Source of the DNA: an uncultured Ruminococcus sp.
Lineage (GTDB): Bacteria; Bacillota; Clostridia; Oscillospirales; CAG-272
NCBI GenBank assembly: GCA_964558485.1
Contig: CAZLED010000002.1
Location: 16,853 to 80,852, forward strand
DNA: 64,000 nt
Direction: 5' to 3'
Positions 1,632-62,387 of this stretch are shown one piece after another (the stretch's first letter is position 1; every line of letters starts with the position of its first letter). The notes under the pieces are model-generated. The model searched no databases and was not told the origin of the DNA. It saw only the letters and a program-made list of their open reading frames with translations. The position numbers and the translations under genes are program-made.

Positions 1632-3158
1632 TCAGTCGTTCAGCGCCATAACGGCATCCAGGATCTCCGTCACGGCCTTTTCCACCTTGCTGCGGTTGGA
1701 GGCTTCCTGAGAGGCATAGTTGAACGTAGAGGCTACACCAATATTCTGCAGGAAGGACTGCATACCGGTGGAGCTGTTGAAGGCAAAGGAAATATCGAAG
1801 TTCCGGGAACCAAAGATGATGTCCAGCATTTCGCCGGAGTTGGTGTCCCGGGCATTGCGCAGGGTCAGGGTGTAGTCGTAGTACGCCGGCATGATGGTGT
1901 CGTGGGCGTACATCTGGTAGGCTTCGGTGATCAGACCCACACGCTTGGTGTCGCCACAGGTCTTGGGCACGGAGATGGCGTCCGCATTGTTGTACTGGAA
2001 GGTGGAGTAGTAGCCTTCCTGTGCCGGGTCTACCTTGGGGAAGGGCAGGATCCCGAAGTCCGACTGCATATCGCCGCCCACCAGGGTCACGGTGCCCAGG
2101 TGGCTCATGAAGAAGCCGATCTTATCCGACATGAACAGGTTGCGGAATTCGACCCAGTTGTCCTTGTATTCCCCGGCCCGGTTACAGTTCAGGATGTGGT
2201 CGCCGCTGTTCAGGAAGCTGTGGATCTGCTCCATGGCGTCCACCACACGGCTGTCTGCCATATTGTAGGTATACGATCCGTCCGGCTGGATCTCGATGAG
2301 CTTTTCTCCGCCACCAAGCAGCAGCGGCAGCGTCACTTCGTCCTGCAGAGCGATGCCGAACACATCCACGCCCCAGGTCATTTGACCGTCGCCGTCGGTG
2401 TCCTGTGCGATCTGCTGGCCATAGGTGTTGAGTCGATCCAGGGTCCAGGCGCCTTCCTTGACGGTGCCGTACAGATCTGTGATCCCGGCATTGGCAGTCA
2501 GCGCCTTATTGAACAGCACCACCCACGTGGCCTTCTTGCCGTTGAGCTGTCCGTCGCCGATGCCAAAGTAGATCCGGTCACCGATGGAGATGCCTTCGAT
2601 GGATGTAGAATCCCACCAGGCCTTGGAGAAATCGATGTAGTCCATGTCGGACAGATTCAGCAGGTAGCCCTGGATCACCAGCTGGCTTTGGTTCTGGGTG
2701 TGATCCTGGAACAGATCGAAGGTGTCGTCGCCGCTCTGGATCAGCTTCTTGGCGGTGTTCAGCCGGTCGGTCACCTGCATTTCCTGCACCTTGACGCCAA
2801 ACCGATCCAGGATCGCCAGGTTCCGTTCGAACACCGCATCGTTGATCCGTTCGCCGTTGAGCTCCTCGGTGTACACGTCCCAGGTCTGCCAGGATACGGA
2901 TTCGCCGGTGCGGTCTCGATACAGCACCACAAAATCGGTGCCGTCGTAGTCCTTCATGTCCGTGGGCAGATCATCCTTTTCGGCAGGGTCCTCGGTTTCT
3001 GCCGTCTCGATGGTTTCTGTACTGCCGGACCCATTGTTGCCGTTGCCAGTCGTTTCCTCGTTTCCTGCTTCTGTCGTACCACAGCCAGCCGCCGTAAGCA
3101 GCAGTGCCGCAAGCAGCAGTGCCGCAAGCAGCAGGGAAGTCCACATTCGTTTACGCAT
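1632..3158 (-). CDS. Extracellular solute-binding lipoprotein (large ~500-aa sugar-type SBP), paralogue 1 of 5
   Basis: SD AGGAGG before ATG 3158. Signal peptide with lipobox LLTAAGC. Conserved blocks shared with the other copies: FSKAWW, DTDGDGQMT, DFGILPFPK. Confidence 0.85.
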   Translation of the reverse strand: MRKRMWTSLLLAALLLAALLLTAAGCGTTEAGNEETTGNGNNGSGSTETIETAETEDPAEKDDLPTDMKDYDGTDFVVLYRDRTGESVSWQTWDVYTEELNGERINDAVFERNLAILDRFGVKVQEMQVTDRLNTAKKLIQSGDDTFDLFQDHTQNQSQLVIQGYLLNLSDMDYIDFSKAWWDSTSIEGISIGDRIYFGIGDGQLNGKKATWVVLFNKALTANAGITDLYGTVKEGAWTLDRLNTYGQQIAQDTDGDGQMTWGVDVFGIALQDEVTLPLLLGGGEKLIEIQPDGSYTYNMADSRVVDAMEQIHSFLNSGDHILNCNRAGEYKDNWVEFRNLFMSDKIGFFMSHLGTVTLVGGDMQSDFGILPFPKVDPAQEGYYSTFQYNNADAISVPKTCGDTKRVGLITEAYQMYAHDTIMPAYYDYTLTLRNARDTNSGEMLDIIFGSRNFDISFAFNSSTGMQSFLQNIGVASTFNYASQEASNRSKVEKAVTEILDAVMALND

Positions 3159-3247
3159 ACCAATACCTCCTGAAATGAAATGATCTTGTCAGAAACACAG
3201 GGATGCGCCGATCCCATGAAGGCCCCGGCACATCCCTGACTTTGTCT

Positions 3248-5437
3248 TTATTCCTTCACGATGTGCAGTACAGCCGTGTTGTAGTCGCCGCCGACCCGGA
3301 TGGGCAGACCGGCACGCATGATGGTGTCGCCGTGGAGATGCATGGTTTCCTTCAGTCCATCGCCTTCTACGGTGTACAGGGCATCGGCCACCAGTCCCTT
3401 GGGATATACCCGGTGCTGGGCGTGCATCAGGTGCCGGATGATCACAAAGGTCACCAGTGCTTCGCTGCCATCCTCGGTCACATATTCCCAGGCGCAGTGG
3501 GTGCCGTTCTTTTCAAAGGGACTTGCCAGACGGTAGTAGTCGCCCCAGTTCACTAAGCTGTAGTACTTGGTGTAGTCGGCGACCTGCTTTTTCACCATGG
3601 CCTTTTCGTCATCCGTCAGCTTGTTCAGGTCCAGCTCGTAGCCAAAGGCACCTGCCATGGCCACGTCTCCTCTGGTCTTGAAGGAAGAGATACGGCCGGT
3701 CTGGTGGTTGGGTACAGCGGAAACGTGGGCCGACATGGAGGACGCCGGGAACACGTGTGCCGTGCCCCACTGGATGAAGCAGCGGTCGATGGCGTCGGAG
3801 TTGTCGCTGGTCCAGAACTGGGGAGAATAGTACAGCATACCGGCATCGTACCGTCCACCACCGCCGGAGCAGCCTTCCAGCAGCAGATCCGGGAAAGCGG
3901 TCAGCAGCCGTTCCATCAGGTCATATACGCCCAGCACATACCGGTGGAAGAATTCCTTCTGTCTTTCCGGCGGCAGCAGGGCAGAACCGGCTTCGGTGAT
4001 GTTCCGGTTGAAGTCCCACTTCACGTAGGCGATATTGGCACTGGACAGAATATCGGTCATCTGCGCCAGAATGTTGTCCCGCACATCGGCTCTGGTCATA
4101 TCCAGCACGCACTGCCGCCGACCCAGGGAACGCTCTCTGCCTTCTACATGGATGCACCAGTCGGGATGGGCTCTGTACAGGTCGGAATCGGGAGAGATCA
4201 TCTCCGGCTCGAACCAGATACCGAACTTGAGCCCCAGGGCATTCACGCGTTCTACCAGGGGCTTCAGACCGCCTTTGAGCTTGTCGGTGTTCACGAACCA
4301 GTCGCCCAGAGAGCAGTTGTCGGAGTTGCGCACGCCGAACCAGCCGTCGTCCATGACCAGCATTTCGATCCCCAGCTCTGCTGCATCCTTGGCGATGGAC
4401 ACCAGCTTGTCGTCGTCAAAGCCAAAGTAGGTGGCTTCCCAGTTGTTCACCAGAATGGGACGGCGTGTGGTCTTCCAGGGGCCACGGCACACGTGCTCCC
4501 GAATGATCTTGTGGAACTGCCGGGACATACCACCCATACCCTCGGCAGAATAGACTGCCAGCACTTCCGGGGTCGTAAAGGTCTCACCGGGGGTCAGATG
4601 CCAGCCGAAGTCGTCGGGATTGATACCGCACAGCAGCCGGGTCTCCCCAAAGGTGTCTACCTCGCACTCCATGGCAAAGTTGCCGGAATACAGCATGGTG
4701 AAGCCGTATACGTCACCGGTCTCCTCGCCGCTGCCGGACTGAGCCAGTGCTACAAAGGGCGTATGGTTGTGGGAAGAGGAGCCACGCTTGGAAGCAATGG
4801 ACTGATAGCCATGGTGGAGCGGATACCGTTCCAGCTGCCGTTCCTTGGCCCAGGCGCCGTACAGGTGTACAAAGTCAAAATCGTCCCGGTAGAAGTCGAA
4901 GCCGGCAGACAGGGCACGTTCGATCTCGATGTCGTCTACGGACTTGTTGGTGATCCGTGCGCTGCGGGCAATGGCATCGTATTTGGGGAATACGGAGTAG
5001 GACAGCACCACGATGGCACCCCACAGGCTGTCCTCCATGGTGATCTCCAGGGTCTGGCATTCGGTGTCGTCCCCATAGGAAGCCGGCATACCGGGCAGTG
5101 CCTTTTTGCCGTTGAAGATCTCATGGGACACATACTTCAGTGTGGTGGCCGAGTTGCCGGTCTTGCCCCGAAGCGAGATAGCAGAGATCCGGCAGTCACC
5201 GGTGCCATTGGTGGGATATTCCTGCAGCCGGGCGTCCAGGGAGTACCAGCTTTCCGGCACAGAGGCAGAGAAGGAGGCGTTTTGCGTCCAGGGCTGCAGA
5301 TAGTCCAGCGCTTCGTCGGATATGGTGCTGCCCCAATAGGAGTGGAACAGATAGCCATGCTTGGCAATGGCCATAACATAGGTGGAATGGTCGGTGTCCA
5401 GACGGAAGGTCTTGGTGGATTCGTTATACTGGATCAT
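3248..5437 (-). CDS. Alpha-galactosidase, glycoside hydrolase family 36
   Basis: 729 aa. GH36 hallmarks present: MDDGWFG, YVKWDFNRNITE, LLEGCSGGGGRYD. SD AAGGAG upstream. Confidence 0.9.
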   Translation of the reverse strand: MIQYNESTKTFRLDTDHSTYVMAIAKHGYLFHSYWGSTISDEALDYLQPWTQNASFSASVPESWYSLDARLQEYPTNGTGDCRISAISLRGKTGNSATTLKYVSHEIFNGKKALPGMPASYGDDTECQTLEITMEDSLWGAIVVLSYSVFPKYDAIARSARITNKSVDDIEIERALSAGFDFYRDDFDFVHLYGAWAKERQLERYPLHHGYQSIASKRGSSSHNHTPFVALAQSGSGEETGDVYGFTMLYSGNFAMECEVDTFGETRLLCGINPDDFGWHLTPGETFTTPEVLAVYSAEGMGGMSRQFHKIIREHVCRGPWKTTRRPILVNNWEATYFGFDDDKLVSIAKDAAELGIEMLVMDDGWFGVRNSDNCSLGDWFVNTDKLKGGLKPLVERVNALGLKFGIWFEPEMISPDSDLYRAHPDWCIHVEGRERSLGRRQCVLDMTRADVRDNILAQMTDILSSANIAYVKWDFNRNITEAGSALLPPERQKEFFHRYVLGVYDLMERLLTAFPDLLLEGCSGGGGRYDAGMLYYSPQFWTSDNSDAIDRCFIQWGTAHVFPASSMSAHVSAVPNHQTGRISSFKTRGDVAMAGAFGYELDLNKLTDDEKAMVKKQVADYTKYYSLVNWGDYYRLASPFEKNGTHCAWEYVTEDGSEALVTFVIIRHLMHAQHRVYPKGLVADALYTVEGDGLKETMHLHGDTIMRAGLPIRVGGDYNTAVLHIVKE

Positions 5438-5476: not shown

Positions 5477-7123
5477 TTATTGCTGTGCTTCCATAGTTAC
5501 GGTGAGCTGTACTTCTTTGCCCGGCACCGGTGTCAGCGTGAAGTCCACATACCGGGACTGGCGCAGGGTCACCGTTTCGTAGGGCACCGCCACGCCATCA
5601 GCCGTCACACCAGTGCAGGTCGTGCCTTGCGGCAACAGGATATGTCCCTCGATCCGGCGGCTGGGCACGTGCAGGACGTAGGTCATGGTGTCGGCACTGC
5701 GTTCCCAGCCGTAGGCGACCAGAATGCCGCTGTCCGCATAGCCGGTGTAGTATTCCATTTTGGTGTAATCGGTCACAGCCCAACGAGGAGAGAAGCCCAG
5801 CACATCGTACTGCACACCTCTGTCCTCCAGGCCGGCCAGTCCTTCTTCGATGGCACAGAGGATCTCCGCCGCACCCCAGCCCACGGGACCGCCGTTGACG
5901 TCTGCCCCGTCCACCGGATCGTACATGAAGAAGATCTTGCCGTCCTTTTCTGCCAGAGACCGGAGCCGGCACAGAATGTCCCAGCCATAGGCCTCGTAGC
6001 CATGCCGGAAAGCAGCCAATGCCAGCTGTCCTGCCGCCACAGAGGAAATGGAGCCGTTGATGTAGGTGCCGCCGGGATAGGTGCCAAAGGTGGGATACGG
6101 CGGATCCAACGTGAACCACTCGGCAAAGGTGTGCCCGTCCCGGCGCCGGATGTATTCGTCCAGAATGGAGCAGGCCTGTTCGTGGCTGGTGGCACCCCGG
6201 TTGATGCTGTGGCATTCGGACAAAGAGAGCATTTCTTCCTCCGGCATCTCTTGGCCACTGTGGTTCAGGTGCAGGTTGTGGGTGTAGATCCTGCCGTTCC
6301 ACAGGTGGCGATCGATATTGGCCCGCAAGGTATCCGCACGGGTCTCCCAGGCGGCGGCAGCATCGTCTTCTCCAAAAATACGGCGCATCCGGGCAAGGGT
6401 CTTCATGGCAGCATAGGTACCGGTGTTGTCTCCATAGAACACGGACATGGGCGAATCCGGGTAGATCAGCCGTGGTTTACCAAAATATTTGCCGTGGGTA
6501 AAGTCGAACATATCGATGGAAAATTCCCGTTTCACCAGGCCCAGCGTAGGTTCCCAGCGCTTCTTGTCGGAGGTGCAGTAGTCGATGCCCTTTTCCAGCT
6601 TCGGTAGGATCCAGCGCAGCCAGTCTTTGTCCCCGGTTGCCTGGAACACCTGCCAAGCCCCTTCTACCATGAGAAACTCGATATCCGCTTCCATCTCGAT
6701 CCGACCCAGCGCCAGACCGCCGGGCAGGAACTTTAATAGCTCCGTATCGTGGTCACGGCCGTGTATCTCGGAGACGATATGGCCATCGGTCTCCCGTTGG
6801 AGCATTTCGTAAAAGAAGCCGGTTTCGGTCTGGTGTTTTGCGATGAAGGTGATGTAATCCTTCAGGTGGCTCTCCCAATGCTTGAAGGCTTTGAGCTCGA
6901 AGATGTAGTCTCGCAGCCATTTGGGATTGAGCCGAAGGATCTTGCCGTCCACAAAGGCAGTGAAGGTGTCGAACTCCACCTGCCGTTCCAGCAGACGCAT
7001 AAATCCGTCCAGCGTCAGGGTATCCGGCTCTTTCCCGCTGCCTCGTCTGTGTCCGAAGCCGGGACGTTCGCAGCGTTCCCCGGTGGTGGGGATATGTCCA
7101 TAGGACAGGCTATGCAGTTCCAT
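5477..7123 (-). CDS. Uncharacterised protein, possibly an (alpha/alpha)6-barrel glycosidase with a C-terminal beta-sandwich
   Basis: 548-aa ORF heading the same minus-strand unit as the GH36 and SBP genes. The helical-repeat-like middle and beta-rich tail suggest a six-hairpin GH fold. I recognise no diagnostic motif. Confidence 0.5.
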   Translation of the reverse strand: MELHSLSYGHIPTTGERCERPGFGHRRGSGKEPDTLTLDGFMRLLERQVEFDTFTAFVDGKILRLNPKWLRDYIFELKAFKHWESHLKDYITFIAKHQTETGFFYEMLQRETDGHIVSEIHGRDHDTELLKFLPGGLALGRIEMEADIEFLMVEGAWQVFQATGDKDWLRWILPKLEKGIDYCTSDKKRWEPTLGLVKREFSIDMFDFTHGKYFGKPRLIYPDSPMSVFYGDNTGTYAAMKTLARMRRIFGEDDAAAAWETRADTLRANIDRHLWNGRIYTHNLHLNHSGQEMPEEEMLSLSECHSINRGATSHEQACSILDEYIRRRDGHTFAEWFTLDPPYPTFGTYPGGTYINGSISSVAAGQLALAAFRHGYEAYGWDILCRLRSLAEKDGKIFFMYDPVDGADVNGGPVGWGAAEILCAIEEGLAGLEDRGVQYDVLGFSPRWAVTDYTKMEYYTGYADSGILVAYGWERSADTMTYVLHVPSRRIEGHILLPQGTTCTGVTADGVAVPYETVTLRQSRYVDFTLTPVPGKEVQLTVTMEAQQ

Positions 7124-51619: not shown

Positions 51620-51799
51620 CGGGTAAACATGCGATGTTCCATACGGTGACATAGCACCACATGACCAAAACATAACAAACGATAGGGAAAGGAGAGGTGG
51701 CACAATGCTTCTCCTTTTTCCTCTGCGTATTCCCCATATTCTGTAGGGAACGGTCTTGACCGTTCCAACAATGTGTATCATAAGAAAGTGAACAGAACC

Positions 51800-54421
51800 A
51801 TGAGAGACGATATCAAAAGCTTTATAACCACCGTTGCCAAGCCGGGGCGATATTCCGGCGGTGAGACCGGCAGCGTGTTCAAGGATTTAGACAAGGTCAA
51901 GATGCGTGTGGCGTTTTGCTTCCCGGACGTGTACGAGATCGGTATGTCCAACCTGGGGATGCGGATCCTGACCGGATGCTTCAATGCCCTGGACGAGGTT
52001 TGGTGTGAGAGAGTATATGCGCCCTGGGTGGATATGGCGGCGGAGATGGAAAAGCGGCACATTCCGCTGTTCACCCACGAAAGCGGCGACCCGGTCTGTG
52101 ACTTTGACGTAGTGGCCTTCACCCTGCAGTACGAGCTGTGCTACACCACCATGCTGAAAATGCTGTCTTTGGCCGGTATCCCCATGCGCCGGGAGGACCG
52201 TGGAGAAGACGGTCCGGTGATCCTGGCCGGTGGTCCCTGCTCCTACAACCCGGAACCGGTGGCAGACTTTGTGGACATTTTCTCCATCGGGGAAGGCGAA
52301 GAGGCGCTGCAGGAGCTGGCACGGCTGTATATGCGCATGAAGGACGAGGGCACCTACACCAAGTCTGCGTTCCTGTATGCGGCGGCTACGGAGCTGAAGG
52401 GCTTCTACGTGCCGTCCCTGTACGACATTGCCTACCACGACGACGGTACCATCGCTGCCATCACGCCCAAGGATGACAAGGTGCCGGAAAAGGTGGTCAA
52501 GCGGGTCATTGGGGATCTGGACAAGTGCTACATTCCCACGGAAACGGTGATCCCCTACATCGAGACGGTGCAGGACAGAGTGACCATCGAGATCATGCGT
52601 GGCTGCGTCCGGGGCTGTCGGTTCTGCCAGGCCGGCTTTGTGACCAGACCTGTCCGGGAACGTTCGCCGGAGCTGCTGAACGAAGCCTGCCACACCATGA
52701 TCCAGAATTCCGGTTACAGCGAGATCTCCATGTGTACCCTGTCCGTCAGCGACTACTCCAAGATCCGGGAGCTGACCGACCAGCTTCTCTCCTGGACAGA
52801 CGACGAAAAGGTCAGCCTGTCTTTGCCGTCCATGCGTGCCGACAGCTTCACCAAGGAGCTGATGGAGAAGATCTCCTCTGTCCGTTCCTCTACCCTGACC
52901 TTTGCACCGGAAGCCGGTTCCCAGCGTCTCCGGGACGTGATCAACAAAAACATCACCGAGGAAGCGATCCTCCGTGCGGCCGGTGTGGCATATGCTGCCG
53001 GAAAGAACCAGGTGAAGCTGTACTTCATGAACGGTCTGCCCTACGAGACCTACGAGGACCTGACCGGTATTGCGGAATTGTCCAAGCACGTGGTGGACGA
53101 ATACTATCGCACACCCAACCGGAATAAGGCAAGACAGCCCCAGGTCACCCTGAGCGTTGCCTGCTTTATCCCCAAGCCCCACACGCCCTTCCAGTGGGAA
53201 AGACAGAACACCTTTGCCGAGCTGGAAGACAAGCAGCACTTCCTGTCCGAGCAGATCACCGACCGGAAGGTGCGCTACAACTACCACGATGCCAAGGTGT
53301 CCCACATCGAAGCGGTGTTTGCCCGTGGGGACAGACGGGTGGGCAAGGCGATCCAGACGGCCGTGGAACGTGGGATGTGGCTGGACGCATGGGAAGAACA
53401 GTTCCAGTTCGATAGCTGGATGCAGGTGTTTGCCGACTGCGGTATCGACCCGGCCTTCTATGCCAACCGCACCATTCCGGACGAAGAGATCCTGCCCTGG
53501 GATATGATCGACTGCGGTGTCACCAAGGCCTTCCTGCTGTCCGAACGGCATAAGGCTGCTCAGGCTGCCACCACTCCGTCCTGTCGGGAAAAATGCTCCG
53601 GCTGTGGCGTGAACAAGCTGGTGGACAAGCAGTACTGCCGCTGGTGCCCCGGTCATCCGGATTCCTCCGACAGTGCCGGAGACATCGCCGGAGACTACAA
53701 GCCCAAGGAAAAGCCGGAAGCACCGGTGAAGGGCAGCATCAAACCGGCCCGTACCCTGCGGATCCGCTTTGCCAAAACGGGTCCGGCGCTGTACATCTCC
53801 CACCTGGACCTGTCCAAGGTCATGAGCCGGTGTATCGTTGCCTCCGGTCTGCCGGTGTATTACACGGAGGGCTTCAATCCCATCCCGAAGTTGGTGTTCG
53901 CAACACCTTTGTCCCTGGGCTGCGGTGGTGACGAAGAGGTGCTGGACATCCGGCTCCTGAAGGACGTATCCAATGCGGAGGCCATGGAGAAGCTTCGTGG
54001 TGCTATGGCAGAGGGGATCGTGGTGAAGGAAGTGTACACCGCAAAGGACAAGATCTCCGACATCCAGTATGCCCACAACCGGATCACCTACGGTGGTTTC
54101 GAGCCGGCAGACTATATGGTGGACGCCATAAACGATCTGTTTAAGAAGCCGGTGGTCATGCTGAAAAAGTCCAAGAGCGGCGAAAAGGAAGTGGACATCT
54201 GCACCTTCATCCGTTCCATCGAAGCGAAGATCGAGGACGTGGACGGCAAGAAGACCTTAGTGATCGATGCCATCACCTCCGCCAGCCAGGACAGCTACCT
54301 GAATCCGGAATACATTGCCACAGCCATCGAACGGGAATTTGCCCTGTCCGGTGAAGACGGCTACCACACCATCTGCCGGAAGCATTTGTATTTGGCAGAC
54401 GGCGAAACGCTGTTCCACTGA
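51800..54421 (+). CDS. B12-binding-domain radical SAM protein (TIGR03960-type) fused to a DUF2344 (TIGR03936-type) domain
   Basis: N-terminal VAKPGRYSGGE. Radical SAM cluster motif MRGCVRGCRFCQAG. C-terminal ~230 aa (LRIRFAKTGPALYISHLDL...) matches the DUF2344 pattern. Start is 51773 or 51800. Confidence 0.85.
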   Translation: MRDDIKSFITTVAKPGRYSGGETGSVFKDLDKVKMRVAFCFPDVYEIGMSNLGMRILTGCFNALDEVWCERVYAPWVDMAAEMEKRHIPLFTHESGDPVCDFDVVAFTLQYELCYTTMLKMLSLAGIPMRREDRGEDGPVILAGGPCSYNPEPVADFVDIFSIGEGEEALQELARLYMRMKDEGTYTKSAFLYAAATELKGFYVPSLYDIAYHDDGTIAAITPKDDKVPEKVVKRVIGDLDKCYIPTETVIPYIETVQDRVTIEIMRGCVRGCRFCQAGFVTRPVRERSPELLNEACHTMIQNSGYSEISMCTLSVSDYSKIRELTDQLLSWTDDEKVSLSLPSMRADSFTKELMEKISSVRSSTLTFAPEAGSQRLRDVINKNITEEAILRAAGVAYAAGKNQVKLYFMNGLPYETYEDLTGIAELSKHVVDEYYRTPNRNKARQPQVTLSVACFIPKPHTPFQWERQNTFAELEDKQHFLSEQITDRKVRYNYHDAKVSHIEAVFARGDRRVGKAIQTAVERGMWLDAWEEQFQFDSWMQVFADCGIDPAFYANRTIPDEEILPWDMIDCGVTKAFLLSERHKAAQAATTPSCREKCSGCGVNKLVDKQYCRWCPGHPDSSDSAGDIAGDYKPKEKPEAPVKGSIKPARTLRIRFAKTGPALYISHLDLSKVMSRCIVASGLPVYYTEGFNPIPKLVFATPLSLGCGGDEEVLDIRLLKDVSNAEAMEKLRGAMAEGIVVKEVYTAKDKISDIQYAHNRITYGGFEPADYMVDAINDLFKKPVVMLKKSKSGEKEVDICTFIRSIEAKIEDVDGKKTLVIDAITSASQDSYLNPEYIATAIEREFALSGEDGYHTICRKHLYLADGETLFH

Positions 54422-55705: not shown

Positions 55706-55734
55706 TTGACAAATCTGCGATAATCCTGTACAAT
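55706..55734 (+). promoter_or_regulatory. Sigma-70-type promoter of the T-box leader
   Basis: TTGACA (55706-55711), 17-nt spacer, TACAAT (55729-55734). Confidence 0.65.
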
Positions 55735-55740
55735 ATCGGG

Positions 55741-56068
55741 TAGAGGCCATGCGGGAGAGGGTTTGCTTGGCATCGTTCCATGAGAATGTCCATCGGTGGT
55801 ATTCTCCAGAGAAGTGGCGGTCGGTGTGAGCCACAGGGAACGGAGAGCAAAGGTGTAGCTCCCAAGCCGAAGGGAAGAACGTTGGTATGTGTCCGATCAG
55901 TAGAACCCTTCCGTGATTGCTGCGTCAAGGCATACGGCTTGTTTGAGCCTGAGGGGCGTTTGTGGAAAGCGCAATTTGAGTGGTACCGCGGACTATACAT
56001 AGAATTTGTTTGGTTCGTCTCAAAGAAACTCCGGTTAGGAGGATCTCTTGAGGCGAGCCAATTTTTTG
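55741..56068 (+). promoter_or_regulatory. T-box riboswitch leader (tRNA-sensing transcription attenuator)
   Basis: T-box sequence AATTTGAGTGGTACCGCG (55973-55990) against consensus AAUUAGGGUGGUACCGCG. Stem I distal elements: AGAGA (55808-55812) and loop GGTCGGTGTGA (55819-55829) closed by GTGGC/GCCAC. The antiterminator can be drawn with a 7-nt bulge TGGTACC. The competing terminator stem at 56011-56060 is followed by T6 (56062-56067). Confidence 0.85.
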
Positions 56069-56127
56069 CTTGTGAACAATACCATCCTAACCATAGAAAA
56101 CAGAGAGAGCAGAAAGGAACGAGAAGC

Positions 56128-58452
56128 ATGAAAAAACAGATCACCGGGCTGTCGTTCAAGATCCAGGAAATGGCAGGCCGTATCAAGGAGCTGCGGGAGA
56201 TCGAAGGATTTTCTACGGCCGATATGGCATCCAAGACCGGCGTGACCGAAGCCGAATACATCGCCTGTGAAGCAGGACTGGACGACCTGAACTTTGCCTT
56301 TATCTATCGTTGTGCCCTGGCGCTGGGCGTGGACGTGACCGATATCATCGAAGGGCAGTCTCCCACATTGGCCGGTTACACCGTGACCAGACGTGGCGAA
56401 GGGCAGGAGATCAACCACGCCCACGGGATGACCTACTACAATATGGCGCCTTCCTTCAAGAACCGTATCTCGGAGCCTTTGTATGTGGAAATGGAATACG
56501 ACGAAGAAGCTGCCAGAGCCGATATCGAAATGACCACCCACGAGGGACAGGAATGCGATATTGTCATCGAAGGGACCCTGAAGGTGCAGGTGGGCGAGCA
56601 TAAGGAGATCCTGCACGCCGGGGACACCATCTACTACGACTCCTCGATCCCCCACGGCATGGTGGCGGTGGAAGGGCAGAAGTGCGTGTTCTACGCCATC
56701 GTGCTCAATCCGTCCGGTGCGCCTGTGGAAGAATTCTCCATTCCCGGTGCCGAGACCACCCAGACGCCACGCCGGATCGGCAAGCCGGAGAGCGAACGGA
56801 TCTACAAGCGGTTCATCTCTGTGACCAAGGACGACAACGGCACACCCACCAAGATCACCTTCCAGAACGCCGACAAGTTCAACTTTGCCTTTGATCTGGT
56901 GGACGCTATGGGGACCGAAAAGCCCGATAAGCTGGTTATGCAGTACGTGGGCAACGACCTGACCGACCGGAAGTTCACCTTTGCCGACATCATGCACGGC
57001 TCCGCACGGTGCGCCAACTACTTCACCGCACTGGGCATCCGCAAAGGCGACCGGGTTATGCTGGTGTTGAAGCGGCACTGGCAGTATTGGTATGCCATGA
57101 TCGGTCTGAACAAGATCGGTGCCATCGCCATTCCGGCTACCAACCAGCTTTTGTCCCACGACTTTACCTATCGGTTTGAAGCCGCCGGTGTGTCTGCCAT
57201 CCTGTGTACCGCCGACGGAGACACCGCACACCAGGTGGATATCGCCATGGCAGACTACCAAAAGCCCATGACCAAGATTCTGGTCTGTGGTGGTACGGCT
57301 GGGGAAGAAAGCCCGGTACAGCGGGAAGGCTGGCACGACTTCAACAGCGAATACAGTATGTACAGCAGCCACTACGACCGGCGGGACGATTCTCCCTGCG
57401 GCGACGAACCGCTGCTGGCCTTCTTCACCTCCGGTACCACCGGCTACCCGAAGATCGCACTGCACAACCACAAGTATCCTCTGGGGCATTTTCATACGGC
57501 AAAATATTGGCACTGCGTAGACCCGGACGGCTTGCACTTCACCATCTCCGATACCGGCTGGGCAAAGTCCATGTGGGGCAAGCTGTACGGCCAGTGGCTG
57601 TGTGAAGCGGCCACCTTTGTGTACGACTTTGACCGGTTCGATGCTTCTCACATCCTGCCCATGTTTGGCAAGTACCATATCACCACCTTCTGCGCACCGC
57701 CGACCATGTATCGGATGCTGATCAAGGACGACCTGTCCGGCTATGATTTCTCCAGCTTAGAGCACGCCACCACCGCCGGGGAAGCCCTGAATCCGGAGGT
57801 ATACAAGCGGTTCGAGGAAGCTACCGGATTGCAGATCATGGAAGGTTTTGGTCAGTCCGAGACCACCTGCATGATCGGGAACCTGACCGGCGCACCCCAC
57901 AAGATCGGCTCTATGGGTCGGCCCTGTCCCATCTACGACATCCACCTGCTGGACAGCGACGGCAAGGATGTACCGGATGGGGAAAACGGCGAGATCTGTA
58001 TCCGTGTGGCAGACGGCGCACCCTGCGGTCTGTTCATGGGCTATTACCGGGACGAAGAGAAGACGAAGGAATGCTGGCACGACGGATACTACCATACCGG
58101 CGACCTGGCATGGCGTGACGAAGATGGGTTCCTGTGGTACGTAGGCCGGGCCGACGACGTGATCAAGTCCTCCGGCTACCGGATCGGGCCCTTCGAGATC
58201 GAGAACGTGATCATGGAGCTGCCGTACGTGCTGGAATGTGGCGTATCGGCCGCACCGGATGAGATCCGTGGTCAGGTGGTCAAGGCATCGATCGTGCTGA
58301 CCAAGGGCACAGAGGGCACCGAGGAATTGAAGAAGGAGATCCAGAACTACGTGAAAAAGAACACGGCACCGTACAAGTACCCCCGGATCGTGGTATTCCG
58401 GGACGAGCTGCCGAAGACGGTCTCCGGCAAGATCATGCGCAACAAACTTTGA
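56128..58452 (+). CDS. Fusion protein: XRE-type HTH + cupin domain + AMP-forming acyl-CoA synthetase/ligase (ACSM-like)
   Basis: Single open frame (part of ORF 55780..58452), start ATG 56128 with AAAGGAACGAGAAGC upstream. HTH IKELREIEGFSTADMASKTGVTEAEYIACE. Cupin HEGQECDIVIEGTLKVQVGEH...GDTIYYDSSIPHG. Ligase motifs FTSGTTGYPK, YHTGDLAWRDEDGFLWYVGRADDVIKSSGYRIGPFEIE and PKTVSGKIMR. Confidence 0.8.
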   Translation: MKKQITGLSFKIQEMAGRIKELREIEGFSTADMASKTGVTEAEYIACEAGLDDLNFAFIYRCALALGVDVTDIIEGQSPTLAGYTVTRRGEGQEINHAHGMTYYNMAPSFKNRISEPLYVEMEYDEEAARADIEMTTHEGQECDIVIEGTLKVQVGEHKEILHAGDTIYYDSSIPHGMVAVEGQKCVFYAIVLNPSGAPVEEFSIPGAETTQTPRRIGKPESERIYKRFISVTKDDNGTPTKITFQNADKFNFAFDLVDAMGTEKPDKLVMQYVGNDLTDRKFTFADIMHGSARCANYFTALGIRKGDRVMLVLKRHWQYWYAMIGLNKIGAIAIPATNQLLSHDFTYRFEAAGVSAILCTADGDTAHQVDIAMADYQKPMTKILVCGGTAGEESPVQREGWHDFNSEYSMYSSHYDRRDDSPCGDEPLLAFFTSGTTGYPKIALHNHKYPLGHFHTAKYWHCVDPDGLHFTISDTGWAKSMWGKLYGQWLCEAATFVYDFDRFDASHILPMFGKYHITTFCAPPTMYRMLIKDDLSGYDFSSLEHATTAGEALNPEVYKRFEEATGLQIMEGFGQSETTCMIGNLTGAPHKIGSMGRPCPIYDIHLLDSDGKDVPDGENGEICIRVADGAPCGLFMGYYRDEEKTKECWHDGYYHTGDLAWRDEDGFLWYVGRADDVIKSSGYRIGPFEIENVIMELPYVLECGVSAAPDEIRGQVVKASIVLTKGTEGTEELKKEIQNYVKKNTAPYKYPRIVVFRDELPKTVSGKIMRNKL

Positions 58453-58477
58453 AAAAGGGGCTTGTCCCCTTTTTTTG
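58452..58477 (+). terminator. Rho-independent terminator
   Basis: AAAAAGGGGC-ttgt-CCCCTTTTTTT immediately after the stop codon. Confidence 0.75.
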
Positions 58478-58902: not shown

Positions 58903-59673
58903 ATGAAAAAACTGCTTTCTTGTATTTTGGCTGGTATGCTGCTGGCTTGCTGCACCTCTTGTGGTGGCAATACCGCTACCATTGCAGACGTGCAGGCTGT
59001 GAAGGACGCCGGCAAAATGGTCATCGGGATCACCGAATATGCACCCATGAACTACCAGGAAGACGGCAAGTGGACCGGCTTTGATACCGAGTTCGCAGAA
59101 GCCGTTTGCGCCAAGCTGGGCGTTACCGCTGAATTCATCGTTATCGACTGGGACAACAAGATCCTGGAGCTGGACTCCGGTTCTATCGACGCCGTCTGGA
59201 ACGGTATGACCATCACCGATGAAGTCCGCAACGGTATGGAAGTTTCCGATGCCTATGTGAAGAACGCACAGGTCGTTGTGCTCAAGGATGCCGCAAACTA
59301 TGCCGACGTGGCTTCCGTGTCTGAACTGTCCTTCGCTGTAGAAGCCGGTTCTGCCGGAGAAGCTGTTGCCGCCGATTCCGGTTTTGCCAATGTTACCGCC
59401 GTTGTTGACCAGGCTACCGCACTGATGGAAGTGGCCTCCGGTTCCGTGGATGCCTGCATCATCGACATCACCATGGCAAACGCTATGACCGGCGAAGGCA
59501 CCAGCTATCCCGATCTGGGCTACAGCCTGGAGCTGAGCACCGAAGAATACGGCATCGGCTTCCGCAAGGGCTCTGACCTGGCCGCCGAAGTCAACGCCAT
59601 CATGGTGGAGCTGACCGCCGATGGTACCCTGCCTGCTCTGGCTGCCAAGTACAACCTGACGCTGGCGAAGTAA
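58903..59673 (+). CDS. Polar amino acid ABC transporter substrate-binding lipoprotein (family 3)
   Basis: SD AAGGAG. Lipobox LLACCTSCGG. Blocks GITEYAPMNYQ, GFDTEFA and DAVWNGMTIT typical of family-3 SBPs. Confidence 0.9.
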   Translation: MKKLLSCILAGMLLACCTSCGGNTATIADVQAVKDAGKMVIGITEYAPMNYQEDGKWTGFDTEFAEAVCAKLGVTAEFIVIDWDNKILELDSGSIDAVWNGMTITDEVRNGMEVSDAYVKNAQVVVLKDAANYADVASVSELSFAVEAGSAGEAVAADSGFANVTAVVDQATALMEVASGSVDACIIDITMANAMTGEGTSYPDLGYSLELSTEEYGIGFRKGSDLAAEVNAIMVELTADGTLPALAAKYNLTLAK

Positions 59674-59808
59674 TTGTGACGATCACCTAAAATATACGAC
59701 CGCAGACGGTGCTTTTTCCGGTGAGAAGGGTGCTGTCTGCGGTATATGTATGTTCACGCAGAACCGTATCGGTTTGCGTATCCCATTTTTGTAGCGAGGT
59801 ATGTATTG

Positions 59809-60480
59809 ATGTTCTGGCCTGTGACCCTGAGTCTTTTGGAGGGGTTTGGTTCCACTCTGAAGCTTTTTGCCCTGACGCTGGTCTTTTCTTTGCCACTGGG
59901 GCTGCTCATTTGCTTTGGTTCTATGAGCAAGTGGCAGATCCGGATCCGGAATTTTTCCATCCGTCCCCTGGGTGCCCTGATGAAGACCTTTGTCTGGATC
60001 ATCCGTGGTACGCCCCTGATGCTGCAGCTCATCGTGATCTATTATGGGCCGGGGCTCATGTTTGATTTGCCGCTGATGCCACGCTTTACCGCCGTGCTGG
60101 TGGCCTTTGTGATCAACTATGCCTGCTACTTCTCCGAGATCTACCGTGGCGGTATCGAGAGCATTTCCAAGGGACAGTACGAAGCCTGCCAGGTGCTGGG
60201 CATGACCAAGACCCAGACCTTTGTCCATGTGGTGCTGCTGCAGGTGGTGAAGCGCATTGTACCGCCTATGAGCAACGAGATCATCACCCTGGTGAAGGAT
60301 ACGTCCCTGGCCCGGATCATCTCCGTCTATGAGGTGATCTGGCACGCACAGGCCTACATCAAAAGCGCCGGGCTCATCTGGCCGCTGTTCTACACGGGGC
60401 TGTACTACCTGATCTTCAATGGCCTGCTGACCATTCTCTTTGGTTGGGTCGAAAAGAAAATGGACTATTTCAAAAACTGA
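59809..60480 (+). CDS. Amino acid ABC transporter permease (His/Glu/Gln/Arg/opine family)
   Basis: Start moved to MFWPVTLS (ATG 59809, GAGGTATGTATTG upstream). IRGTPLMLQLIVIYYG, and an EAA-like loop QYEACQVLGMTKTQTFVHVVLLQVVKRIVPPMSNE. Confidence 0.85.
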   Translation: MFWPVTLSLLEGFGSTLKLFALTLVFSLPLGLLICFGSMSKWQIRIRNFSIRPLGALMKTFVWIIRGTPLMLQLIVIYYGPGLMFDLPLMPRFTAVLVAFVINYACYFSEIYRGGIESISKGQYEACQVLGMTKTQTFVHVVLLQVVKRIVPPMSNEIITLVKDTSLARIISVYEVIWHAQAYIKSAGLIWPLFYTGLYYLIFNGLLTILFGWVEKKMDYFKN

Positions 60481-60494
60481 TGGAGGACGATACG

Positions 60495-61553
60495 ATGGCG
60501 ATCAAAGTTGGTATTTTGGGACTTGCCCACGGGCACGTCATGAACTATGGCAAAAAATGGATGGAGCACCCCGAATGGGATATCCAGCTGGTGGGTGGCT
60601 GGGATCACGATGCTGCCAGATGCGCACAGAGCACCGCTGCACTGGGGATCGCTGCCTACGACGATCCGGAAGCACTGCTGGCTGACGTGGATGCCGTGGT
60701 GATCTCTTCGGAGACCTCGTACCACGTGACTCTGACCGAGCTGGCTGCCGCTCATGGGAAGGACATCATCTGCTACAAGCCCATGGCGCTGACCCTGGAC
60801 GAAGCAGACCGGATGGTGGCCGCTGTGGAAAAGGCCGGTGTGCGCTTTACCCTGGGCTACCAGATGCGTGTGGACCCCCAGAACATCAAGATGAAAGAGC
60901 TGGTGCAAAGCGGTACCATCGGCAATATCTGCCACTACCGCCGCCGCCATGGTCTGGCTACCCACACCTGGGGCAACTTCGAGGATGCATGGCACGCCAA
61001 GGAACACTACAACCGGGACATCTTCGCCGACGACAGCGCCCATCCCATCGATATGATCAACTGGATGTTCGGCGTGCCGGAGACCGTGTCCTGCGAAATG
61101 ACCACCATGGTCAACCAGAAGGTCAAGAACGACAACGGTGTGGCCCTGTTCCGCTATGCCAATGGGATGATCGCCGAGATCACCTGCTCCTTTGTGTGCG
61201 TGGCATCGGAGATCACCACCGAGATCTACGGTACCAAGGGCTCTATCCAGCAGTACTACGGTGACGCTGTGTCCACCTCTCTGCCCAGACCTGCCGGACA
61301 GCCCGGACTGAAATACTATGTGCTGGGGGACAGCGACTGGACAGACAGCGAGATCCCCAGTCCCGTGTCCCACGGCGAACGGATCGGCGCACAGGGTGAG
61401 ATCTTTGCCCAGTTCCTGCGTGGCGAGAGAGGACCGGTCTGCTCGATCTATGAAGCAAGAGATTCGCTGAAGATGGTGCTGGCCTGCTATCTGTCTGCCC
61501 GAGAAGGCCGTAGAGTGCGCATCGACGACCCGGCCCTGTACGATATCCTGTAA
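60495..61553 (+). CDS. Gfo/Idh/MocA family oxidoreductase embedded in the ABC operon
   Basis: Start moved to MAIKVGILGLAHGH (ATG 60495, GGAGGACGATACG upstream). Rossmann N-domain and typical C-domain. Lies between the permease and ATPase genes with 14-15-nt gaps. Confidence 0.85.
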   Translation: MAIKVGILGLAHGHVMNYGKKWMEHPEWDIQLVGGWDHDAARCAQSTAALGIAAYDDPEALLADVDAVVISSETSYHVTLTELAAAHGKDIICYKPMALTLDEADRMVAAVEKAGVRFTLGYQMRVDPQNIKMKELVQSGTIGNICHYRRRHGLATHTWGNFEDAWHAKEHYNRDIFADDSAHPIDMINWMFGVPETVSCEMTTMVNQKVKNDNGVALFRYANGMIAEITCSFVCVASEITTEIYGTKGSIQQYYGDAVSTSLPRPAGQPGLKYYVLGDSDWTDSEIPSPVSHGERIGAQGEIFAQFLRGERGPVCSIYEARDSLKMVLACYLSAREGRRVRIDDPALYDIL

Positions 61554-61568
61554 ACGAAGGAGAATACC

Positions 61569-62387
61569 ATGCCAATTTTGGAAGTCAAGGATTTTCGCAA
61601 AAGCTTTGGAAATGTGGAAGTCCTGAAGGGGATCGATTTTACCCTGGAAAAAGGAGAGGTGCTGGTGATCATCGGCTCCTCCGGCAGCGGCAAGACCACC
61701 CTGCTGCGGTGCCTGAATTATCTGGAGACCCCGGATCATGGGATCATGAAGGTCGGTGGAGAGACGCTGTTTGATGCGTCTGAAAAGCGAAAGCTGACCG
61801 ACCGGGAGATCCGGCAGCGCAGACTGCATTTTGGGCTGGTGTTCCAATCCTTCAATCTGTTCCCCCAGTACACGGTGCTGAAAAACGTGACCCTGGCGCC
61901 GGAGCTGTTGATGCAGGAAGAAAACGGCGGCAAAAAGATGAGCCGGGAAGAAAAGGCTGCCGCACTGGAAAAGATCCACGCAGACGCTATGGCACTGTTG
62001 GCCACGGTAGGCATGACGGAGAAGGCAGACAGCTACCCCTGCCAGCTTTCCGGTGGACAGTGTCAGCGTGTGGCCATTGCCCGTGCCCTTGCCATGTCGC
62101 CGGATATCCTGTGCTTTGACGAGCCTACCTCTGCCCTGGACCCGGAGCTGACCGGTGAGGTGCTGCGTGTGATCCGGGGACTGAAATCCACCTCCGATGG
62201 AGAAAGCGGCCGCACCATGATCGTGGTGACCCATGAGATGGCCTTTGCCCGTGGGGTCGCCGACAAGGTGATCTACATGGCCGATGGTGTCATCGAAGAA
62301 ATGGGCACCCCGGAGGAAGTCTTCGATCATCCGAAAAGCGAGAAGACGAAGCAGTTTTTGGGTGCCGGAAAAGAATTCAGTATATGA
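61569..62387 (+). CDS. Amino acid ABC transporter ATP-binding protein
   Basis: Walker [11 protein letters not shown]-loop FQSFNLF, signature LSGGQCQR, Walker [13 protein letters not shown]. An insertion ([20 protein letters not shown]) precedes the signature. Confidence 0.9.

Follow-up and report, generated by a model that had tools for sequence, protein, structure and literature searches.

The element described here occupies positions 55741-58452 of the forward strand of a 64,000-nucleotide (nt) stretch of contig CAZLED010000002.1 from an uncultured Ruminococcus sp., which is referred to below, at its full length, as the window. It consists of a leader RNA and the gene that follows it, a single reading frame of 774 amino acids (aa) in which a helix-turn-helix (HTH)-like segment and a cupin barrel precede an AMP-forming acyl-coenzyme A (CoA) ligase of the Macs/ACSM type (Table 1). 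By its predicted architecture the leader (55741-56067) is a transcription-attenuation T-box with a lineage-specific insertion in Stem I, and the RNA thus belongs to a well-known class of riboswitch. Comparison with related loci revealed that the specifier codon of these leaders covaries perfectly with the ligase paralog encoded downstream: all readable leaders of the clade that includes the window gene carry a valine codon (GUA or GUC, 79/79), and all readable leaders of a second clade carry the isoleucine codon AUC (42/42).

The elements that the initial annotation had named in this leader, from the distal AGAGA and GGTGTGA elements of Stem I to the T-box sequence, the antiterminator helices with their 7-nt bulge and the competing terminator, were all recovered at the same positions. 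The 15-mer core of the T-box sequence, TTGAGTGGTACCGCG, occurs once in the 64 kb, and the chance expectation for this core at up to two mismatches is 0.17 matches in the window. The antiterminator is the minimum free energy (MFE) fold of 55973-56026 (-14.6 kcal/mol, z -2.4), and the terminator hairpin folds at -31.9 kcal/mol (z -6.1), as stably as none of 200 shuffled sequences; both structures require 56014-56024 and are mutually exclusive, as had been proposed. The AGAGA bulge and the distal loop are predicted motifs of the tRNA-elbow platform. The fourth base of the bulge pairs with the discriminator base of the tRNA, so that UGGU calls for A73, which fits both tRNA-Val and tRNA-Ile; UGGU is the bulge sequence in all leaders examined, and the A73 tRNA that the initial annotation had deduced from it agrees with tRNA-Val under the established identity rules.

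The specifier codon, which had been left without a name for want of a satisfactory Stem I fold, is GUA. In the centroid fold, GGU-GUA-G forms the 3' side of the specifier loop and the CUCCC that comes next is paired with GGGAG further upstream; the codon slot of the Rfam T-box model RF00230 falls on the same GUA in the cmscan alignment. An alternative register, UGU, was excluded by the GGUAG variants found in two related leaders (L010 and L043).

Related loci were counted among the best 80 of at least 559 stretches that encode relatives in species-representative genomes, and nearly all of these 80 come from metagenome-assembled genomes (MAGs) of gut or rumen Clostridia (Oscillospiraceae, Acutalibacteraceae, Ruminococcaceae and Christensenellaceae). 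In 74 of the 80 loci the gene is preceded, at a distance of 78-189 nt, by the motif G[A/G]GTGGTACCGCG, and four of the remaining six have no upstream sequence, so the leader is retained by the orthologs rather than lost from them. The window leader and 43 orthologous or paralogous leaders were aligned with MAFFT, and the canonical T-box structure (basal helix, kink-turn (K-turn) helix, distal helix, Stem II, Stem IIA/B, two hairpins and the antiterminator helices A1 and A2) was set on this 44-sequence alignment explicitly. With that structure 89.5% of cells were paired, compared with 39-50% when the 3' partners were slid; two-sided compensatory changes were observed at 37 of 55 pairs, and none of 500 shuffles matched the observed values. 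A1 was paired in 100% and A2 in 94% of cells, and three helices in length-variable regions, which MAFFT fails to align, were poorly supported. An RNAalifold consensus with long-range AGAGA-CUC pairing was discarded as spurious; it missed the basal helices of Stem I, so the explicit structure was preferred. A hairpin with a T-run follows the antiterminator in 106 of 109 leaders, with a median stability of -20 kcal/mol.

The link between specifier and paralog emerged from 123 pairs of T-box and ligase, with the ligase clades assigned by blastp. Orthologs of the window gene are about 70% identical to it, and members of the second clade, which lie immediately upstream in tandem in 43 loci, about 60%. 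Specifiers were extracted automatically from the 3' strand, and every odd case was then read individually. The Val-clade leaders comprise 77 with GUA, two with GUC and one that is unreadable, as the leader ends at the contig end; the Ile-clade leaders comprise 42 with AUC and one that is truncated. The position of the specifier is conserved in all 79 Val-type and 42 Ile-type leaders, and the same reading rule returned GUC for a valS leader (in L003) and CUC for the leaders of LeuA-like genes.

The Val-type and Ile-type leaders of one genome are almost identical from Stem IIA/B onward, which suggests that leader and gene were duplicated together, or homogenized by gene conversion, and that the specifier changed afterwards. 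Evolution of T-boxes by duplication and specifier change has been described before (PMC2494555, PMC3766115). In the tandem locus L018, the Ile leader (3060-3308) and the Val leader (5698-5941) differ in the specifier loop but hardly at all between Stem IIA/B and the antiterminator, and the same is seen in other tandem loci.

Table 1. Features of the T-box leader and the ligase gene in the window (positions of the 64,000-nt stretch).
Feature	Position	Strand	Details
Sigma-70-like promoter	55706..55734	+	TTGACA-17-TACAAT; 11/12 consensus positions; predicted transcription start near 55741
Stem I	55745..55868	+	Ensemble centroid fold, 44-leader alignment, covariation counts
Stem I, basal helix	starts at 55745	+	GGC/GCC
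Stem I, helix below the specifier loop	55753-55757 / 55859-55863	+	GGGAG with CUCCC, then specifier loop
Stem I, further helices		+	UUUGCU/AGCAAA, then CGUUCC/GGAACG
Extra Stem I hairpin, lineage-specific	55782..55806	+	Centroid fold; just 5' of the AG bulge
AG bulge	55808..55812	+	AGAGA
Distal loop	55819..55829	+	GGUCGGUGUGA; closed by covarying helix GUGGC/GCCAC
Distal-loop motif of Stem I	55823..55829	+	GGTGTGA
Specifier codon (Val)	55855..55857	+	GUA; unpaired purine G55858 next, then helix CUCC(C)
Stem II, Stem IIA/B region and two hairpins	55869..55972	+	Stem II with GAAGAA / AGUAGA S-turn-like motifs; compensatory changes in the 44-leader alignment
T-box sequence	55973..55990	+	AATTTGAGTGGTACCGCG = AAUUUGAGUGGUACCGCG; 5' side of the antiterminator
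Antiterminator	55973..56024	+	A1 UUUGAG/CUCAAA, bulge UGGUACC, A2 GCGGA.../...UUCGU
Antiterminator helix A1	55975-55980 / 56019-56024	+	TTTGAG/CTCAAA; 6 bp
Antiterminator bulge, 7 nt	55981..55987	+	TGGTACC; UGGNACC type
Antiterminator helix A2	55988-55992 / 56014-56018	+	GCGGA/TTCGT; at least 5 bp
Intrinsic terminator	56010..56067	+	Hairpin 56010-56061, T6 at 56062-56067; overlaps the antiterminator 3' strand at 56014-56024
774-aa fusion gene	56128..58452	+	HTH-like segment, cupin, Macs/ACSM-type acyl-CoA ligase; AGGA Shine-Dalgarno-like sequence at 56115-56118
HTH-like five-helix segment	56146..56355	+	aa 7-76; acidic; under Pfam HTH thresholds
Cupin barrel	56407..56706	+	aa ~94-193; invariant H138, E142, H176
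AMP-forming acyl-CoA ligase	56914..58431	+	AMP-binding aa 263-640, AMP-binding_C aa 690-768
Terminator-like hairpin	58453..58476	+	AAAAGGGG-CTTGT-CCCCTTTT; directly after the stop codon; T-run to 58476; read from the sequence

Of the fused protein that the initial annotation had described, the single frame, the cupin and the ACSM/Macs-type ligase were all confirmed, whereas its HTH domain scores under the Pfam thresholds (see below). A longer open reading frame (ORF) of 890 aa, starting at 55780, is a spurious in-frame extension across the leader. The protein belongs to a large family (8000 candidates were scored at E <= 1e-20, and the matches listed, n = 120, are at least 71% identical to the 774-aa query), whose public labels read only 'AMP-binding protein' or 'cupin domain-containing protein'.

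The ligase domain exceeds the thresholds of both PF00501 (AMP-binding, 210 bits) and PF13193 (AMP-binding_C, 74.5 bits). Its closest match in the PDB is 3ETC, the enzyme MacsMa of Methanosarcina acetivorans, which aligns end to end with query residues 248-771 at 618 bits; the next matches, a 4-hydroxybutyrate-CoA ligase and human ACSM2A, score about 330-338 bits. MacsMa favours the branched acid 2-methylbutyrate and requires Trp259, a residue of an alternate acyl pocket, and its CoA-binding residues Tyr460, Arg490, Tyr525 and Tyr527 were established by mutagenesis (PMC10455477). In the alignment with 3ETC (chain index = MacsMa residue number + 23, an offset checked on six residues), W483 of the window protein corresponds to Trp259, and Y684, R714, Y749 and Y751 to the four CoA-pocket residues; all five are invariant or nearly so in the 123 ligases. 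K480 lines up with what we take to be Lys256 of MacsMa, next to the pocket Trp259.

Among NCBIfam models the best match is MbcS (NF047394), with 414.6 bits against an equivalog cut-off of 850, a score that marks the window ligase as a relative of MbcS and not as its ortholog. The acids that MbcS of Staphylococcus aureus selects are 2-methylbutyrate and isobutyrate, isovalerate being a poor substrate (PMC10026030). This selectivity fits the occurrence of two T-box ligase clades and no more, one for Val and one for Ile, with leucine served by the LeuA-like gene. Sixteen alignment positions cleanly separate the two clades, five in the ligase domain and 11 in the N-terminal module. Two of the ligase positions, 479 and 482, are close neighbours of the pocket Trp (-4 and -1). 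The Ile clade agrees with MacsMa at residues 328, 479 and 584, and the Val clade departs from both MacsMa and the Ile clade at 479 (Ala for Gly) and 482, so the acyl pocket of the Val clade may be the tighter one. Position 479 presumably corresponds, by the GW-x motif, to Ile312 of Acs, for which the literature confirms only that it is a pocket residue. Taken together, the specifiers, the nearest characterized enzymes and the pocket-adjacent substitutions indicate that isobutyrate is most likely the substrate of the Val clade.

Genomic context in the relatives points in the same direction as to pathway. In locus L037, a P-loop ATPase gene begins 10 nt after the Val ligase and is followed by genes for a 68-aa 2x[4Fe-4S] ferredoxin, VorB, and the beta and gamma subunits of a 2-oxoacid:ferredoxin oxidoreductase (OFOR); this VorB scores 557 bits against a cut-off of 399 as 3-methyl-2-oxobutanoate dehydrogenase (ferredoxin) subunit. 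In 57 of 80 loci the ATPase gene is the next one after the Val ligase, and tblastn found VorB in 54 of these 57. A LeuA-like gene, under its own Leu T-box, was detected by tblastn in 25 of 80 loci. In L042, a locus without a T-box, the order is contiguous: LeuA-like gene, second ligase fusion, Ile ligase, Val ligase, ATPase and 2-oxoisovalerate:ferredoxin oxidoreductase (VOR).

Two components of these loci deserve description in their own right. The second ligase fusion of L042 (1187-3679, +), from a Ruminococcus MAG, is an 830-aa ORF in which the AMP-binding ligase is preceded by a TIM barrel of xylose-isomerase-like type (PF01261); it stands between the LeuA-like gene and the Ile and Val ligases. 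Its N-terminal partner differs from the HTH-like/cupin module, in a pathway context that is shared. The P-loop ATPase, of about 216 aa and ParA/CbiA/Mrp-like (L037:8296-8946, with equivalents in the 57 loci), is always placed between the Val ligase and the ferredoxin and VOR genes and also occurs beside VorB in L082, a locus in which module and ligase are split; one possibility is that it helps to mature or assemble the Fe-S centres of VOR.

Rumen anaerobes and methanogens are known from classical labelling work to form branched-chain amino acids (BCAA) from branched short-chain acids by reductive carboxylation, with VOR acting anabolically. We consider it probable, on balance, that the window leader belongs to a regulated version of this route, in which tRNA-Val-dependent antitermination induces an isobutyrate-CoA ligase for valine synthesis. 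When valine is scarce, the anticodon of uncharged tRNA-Val(UAC) would pair with the GUA specifier in Stem I, and the free NCCA end with UGGU of the 7-nt bulge; this pairing would stabilize the antiterminator, which is weak (about -15 kcal/mol), in competition with a much stronger terminator (about -32 kcal/mol) and let RNA polymerase read into the gene. The ligase, of Macs/MbcS type, would convert isobutyrate to isobutyryl-CoA, and VOR would carboxylate the latter reductively to 2-oxoisovalerate, from which valine would be formed by transamination and leucine by way of the Leu-T-box-controlled LeuA-like enzyme. The paralogous ligase under the Ile (AUC) T-box would serve the same route from 2-methylbutyrate to isoleucine. 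Our confidence in the T-box and its Val specifier by themselves is much higher than in this mechanism as a whole, and the substrate and the direction in which VOR runs are less certain. The initial annotation had placed the gene outside the usual remit of T-boxes and hinted at an amino-acid-linked acyl activation; the evidence from ligase and VOR points instead to an alternative form of amino-acid biosynthesis, from branched acid through acyl-CoA and 2-oxo acid to BCAA.

Several observations weigh against this mechanism. The window leader scores well under the curated Rfam threshold, and its extra hairpin might interfere with tRNA docking. The match of the ligase to MbcS lies far below the equivalog cut-off, and the substrate specificity of every member of the fused family is a prediction. 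VOR is reversible, so the flux direction would follow from regulatory logic only. VOR is not adjacent in 23 of the 80 loci, the closest relatives of the window included, and within the 64-kb window tblastn found no VOR, ATPase or LeuA-like gene; neither VOR, ilv or leu genes nor a tRNA gene is visible there. The terminator-like hairpin that directly follows the stop codon, which a consensus terminator scan did not flag because its T-run belongs to the stem, implies that the window gene is monocistronic. The window gene would therefore be assigned to the VOR pathway by orthology only.

The neighbours of the window gene are of other kinds. Directly upstream of the T-box promoter lie an 882-aa protein gene with Radical_SAM_N2, Radical_SAM and DUF2344 domains (51773-54421, +), followed by DUF421 (YetF-like) and DUF4363 genes. 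Downstream (58903-62387) is an amino-acid-type ATP-binding cassette transporter (SBP_bac_3, permease and ATPase), with a Gfo/Idh/MocA oxidoreductase gene (60444-61553) embedded between permease and ATPase and overlapping the permease end. The ligase neighbours are likewise unrelated in the window-like loci L003 and L027; in L027, genes of 563 and 196 aa after the ligase were considered as IorA/IorB and rejected, being DsbD-like and thioredoxin-like.

The N-terminal module bears on a different proposal, also made in the initial annotation, that the XRE-type HTH and cupin bind DNA on a small-molecule cue, so that the protein would be both an enzyme and a transcription factor for its own or other BCAA genes, in addition to T-box control. 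Matches to HTH_19, HTH_31 and HTH_3 speak for this, and in the window protein all three fall below the Pfam thresholds (25.5 against 30.2, 20.1 against 27 and 17.4 against 23, respectively); many orthologs and stand-alone relatives of the module carry precomputed HTH hits, and in the stand-alone relatives HTH_3 and HTH_19 are not marked as weak. The only PDB sequence match of the module, 1Y9Q from Vibrio cholerae (E 8e-5), was deposited as an HTH_3 family transcriptional regulator. At the same time, the HTH-like segment is acidic, with a mean net charge of -5.8 in the Val clade and -6.5 in the Ile clade, and its putative recognition helix (helix 3, VSEEEYLACENG) carries -3 to -3.6. Inverted repeats with exact 7-nt arms and a spacing of up to 30 were sought in 109 promoter regions, a search that leaves degenerate or distant operators outside its reach, and none was conserved; the only arms found, TATCACA, occur in three closely related loci.

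In L044-L047 and L078, a few Acutalibacteraceae MAGs that are close relatives of one another, an inverted repeat, TGTGATA-N~20-TATCACA, coincides in part with the promoter of the Ile-type leader (~3000-3060). The repeat is not conserved across the family and might be an operator of this lineage.

Among the closest fold matches of the module are enzymes. In the AlphaFold model (mean pLDDT, the predicted local distance difference test, 70) the sub-domains reach 80-90, the beta-barrel 81-90, and the linker is disordered, so inter-domain geometry and the rmsd values of the fold matches are unreliable. Foldseek matches spanning both domains are HppE, HEPD, MPnS, Psf4 and 1Y9Q, with E values of 2e-13 to 1e-9, template-modelling scores of only 0.42-0.49 and about 20% identity; the top matches of the same layout are the enzymes HppE, HEPD and MPnS, whose alpha-domain is not known to bind DNA. 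The cupin itself is secure (Cupin_2, 45.7 against a threshold of 27.2), and H138, E142 and H176 are invariant in the 123 fused proteins and in 19 stand-alone relatives, an H-x3-E...H pattern resembling the HppE triad. The Fe(II) ligands of HppE are His138, Glu142 and His180 (PMC7916636).

Relatives of the module number 550 at E <= 1e-10 among 1.8 billion cluster representatives, and many are stand-alone proteins of about 185 aa. In three stand-alone loci that were looked up, the module gene is followed at once by a gene of its own for a Macs-like ligase (48-63% protein identity with MacsMa), at gaps of 4-16 nt or with an ATGA overlap, and no T-box was found in any of the three. The partnership of HTH-like/cupin module and ligase is therefore older and wider than either the fusion or the T-box, and the module would be an ancient obligate partner of this type of ligase, in split as in fused form. 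In one such metagenome contig, L082, the stand-alone HTH-cupin gene overlaps the ligase start by ATGA and has a divergent ATPase-ferredoxin-VorB operon on its other side, only 86 nt away (1379-1464); with such an arrangement the HTH-cupin protein might well act as a transcriptional regulator.

A DNA-binding role of the module is accordingly graded here as doubtful, and it keeps some plausibility because the stand-alone relatives are the first genes of ligase operons, with the classic regulator arrangement of L082 as an example. The 11 of 16 clade-separating positions that fall within the module can also be read in its favour. Set against this, one-to-one fusion or translational coupling suits a subunit better than a low-copy regulator. 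In sum, we regard a dual enzyme and transcription factor as possible but somewhat unlikely, and suggest that the module may rather be a paralog-specific ligand- or metal-binding regulatory domain, serving for example end-product feedback, and possibly a DNA binder.

A second alternative would change the fate of the product: isobutyryl-CoA could serve as primer for branched-chain (iso-even) fatty acids, with induction under valine starvation sparing valine from degradation to primers. It draws on MbcS, the best NCBIfam match, whose role is the salvage of branched fatty-acid primers (PMC10026030), and on the absence of a VOR link at the window ligase. The arrangement of the relatives, in which the ATPase follows the Val ligase and VorB accompanies it as described above, often with the LeuA-like gene and its Leu T-box nearby, argues against it, as does the absence of fatty-acid synthesis genes beside the ligases in the loci examined. 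Moreover, an oxidative VOR induced under valine starvation would use up the valine precursor. We consider this alternative improbable, and valine synthesis from isobutyrate remains the preferred reading.

It has also to be asked whether the window leader is decayed, terminating constitutively or having lost tRNA sensing. The Rfam scan of the 64-kb window at the gathering score of RF00230 (93 bits) gave no hit, and a permissive scan matched the model at full length (model 1-219, window 55767-56025) with 47.4 bits and E 2.5e-9; in addition, the MFE fold of Stem I is non-canonical, the canonical form appearing only in the ensemble centroid of 55743-55868, with z -0.6. The description of the leader as canonical therefore holds for its architecture and not for its score or for the extra hairpin. 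The low score is probably attributable to this lineage-specific hairpin: the distance from the base of Stem I to the T-box motif is 236 nt in the window and about 200 nt in typical leaders, the 44-leader alignment traces the excess to an insertion of about 25-35 nt in the 5' strand of Stem I, and the cmscan alignment misplaces that strand in the insertion region. Some orthologous leaders free of the insertion pass the gathering score (Val-type, 99.2-101.6 bits; Ile-type, 93.5-107.2 bits). Decay is rendered very unlikely by the intact basal helices, K-turn region, specifier and adjoining purine, AGAGA, GGUGNGA loop, T-box 15-mer, bulge and terminator, and by an intact gene whose product is 89% identical to its nearest relative among the 80 loci, from a buffalo rectum MAG. 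The relatives L002 and L003 carry a different Stem I insertion, and one report (PMC9177973) documents lineage-specific insertions in functional T-boxes.

In these two relatives, the Val leaders (L002:~5610-5890; L003:~5606-5895) have the extra sequence AGAGAAGTGGCGGTGTCATATGACAGACGGTGCGAGCCA within the distal loop of Stem I, and the insertion of the window lies 5' of the AG bulge; the two insertions appear to be independent, lineage-specific events in orthologous T-boxes.

Activation or conjugation of the amino acid itself by the ligase, as valyl-AMP or N-acyl-valine, is barely credible. Domains that adenylate amino acids do occur in the ANL superfamily, and the T-box connects the gene with valine, but the ligase domain matches the acyl-CoA synthetase MacsMa over its whole length and keeps all four of its mutagenesis-proven CoA residues (PMC10455477), the protein lacks carrier and condensation domains of the nonribosomal peptide synthetase type, and the relatives show conserved linkage to VOR, which uses acyl-CoA.

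A broader proposal joins these elements, and we advance it tentatively, rating it below an even chance. Hundreds of species of gut and rumen Clostridia might synthesize BCAA from fermentation acids by a so far unannotated, riboswitch-labelled route, in which the Val or Ile specifier of each cupin-fused ligase would announce its substrate (isobutyrate or 2-methylbutyrate) and a dedicated VOR, ferredoxin and maturation ATPase would take part; the HTH-like/cupin module with its invariant His/Glu/His residues might then be a new, paralog-specific sensor of ANL enzymes, acting by end-product feedback or as a metal-dependent gate, and not a classical repressor.

For decades it has been recognized that isobutyrate, 2-methylbutyrate and isovalerate are required by, or beneficial to, cellulolytic ruminococci and related Clostridia, which is why these 'isoacids' serve as feed additives. 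The literature searched on branched-chain volatile fatty acids treats this requirement at the nutritional level and names no genes. The present finding offers gene candidates for it, namely two ligase paralogs labelled by their specifiers, with linked VOR, ferredoxin and ATPase in most relatives. It would also improve the annotation of a family with thousands of sequences, extends the documented T-box regulon to acyl-CoA ligases, and draws attention to a conserved HTH-like/cupin partner of ANL enzymes. Three points appear to be unreported in the literature searched, with an earlier mention elsewhere possible: a T-box on acyl-CoA ligases, a Val/Ile paralog pair labelled by specifiers, and the link to VOR.

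Among known systems, the N-terminal module compares most closely in predicted layout with HppE, HEPD, MPnS and 1Y9Q, the matches covering both sub-domains, and its H-x3-E...H pattern resembles the triad of HppE. It differs from the HppE-type enzymes in that no phosphonate genes lie near the ligase locus, and oxygen-dependent HppE-like chemistry would be implausible in these anaerobes. Trigger enzymes such as BirA and PutA likewise combine an enzyme and an N-terminal fold of DNA-binding type in one polypeptide; here, in contrast, the partnership also exists as two translationally coupled genes, and DNA binding is partly contradicted. With MacsMa the ligase has in common the Trp259 pocket residue, the neighbouring Lys256 and the four CoA-pocket residues, whereas MacsMa is archaeal, has no T-box, and shows no HTH-like/cupin module in the crystallized chain. 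The selectivity of MbcS covers the same two acids, isobutyrate and 2-methylbutyrate, that are implied by the Val and Ile T-box paralogs, but MbcS feeds fatty-acid primers and has neither T-box control nor VOR linkage nor a cupin module.

The leader itself shares with the BCAA T-boxes of valS, ileS, ilv-leu and leuA (RF00230) the K-turn region, specifier loop, AG bulge, distal loop, Stem II, Stem IIA/B, the further hairpins before the T-box, the UGGN bulge, the competition of terminator and antiterminator, and a specifier that matches the amino acid of the gene. Here, however, the target is an acyl-CoA ligase, joined in relatives by VOR, and not an aminoacyl-tRNA synthetase, a classical ilv/leu enzyme or a transporter, and the window copy has its extra Stem I hairpin of about 25-35 nt and a score under the gathering score. 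Neither CoA ligases nor OFOR enzymes are mentioned in two surveys of the T-box regulon (PMC2494555, PMC3766115). With respect to the reductive carboxylation of branched acids in rumen anaerobes and methanogens, the ligase, ferredoxin, VorB, beta and gamma subunits and LeuA-like enzyme of the relatives make up the gene set of that pathway, which in these Clostridia differs in that the specifier codon provides a built-in specificity label on the pathway genes.

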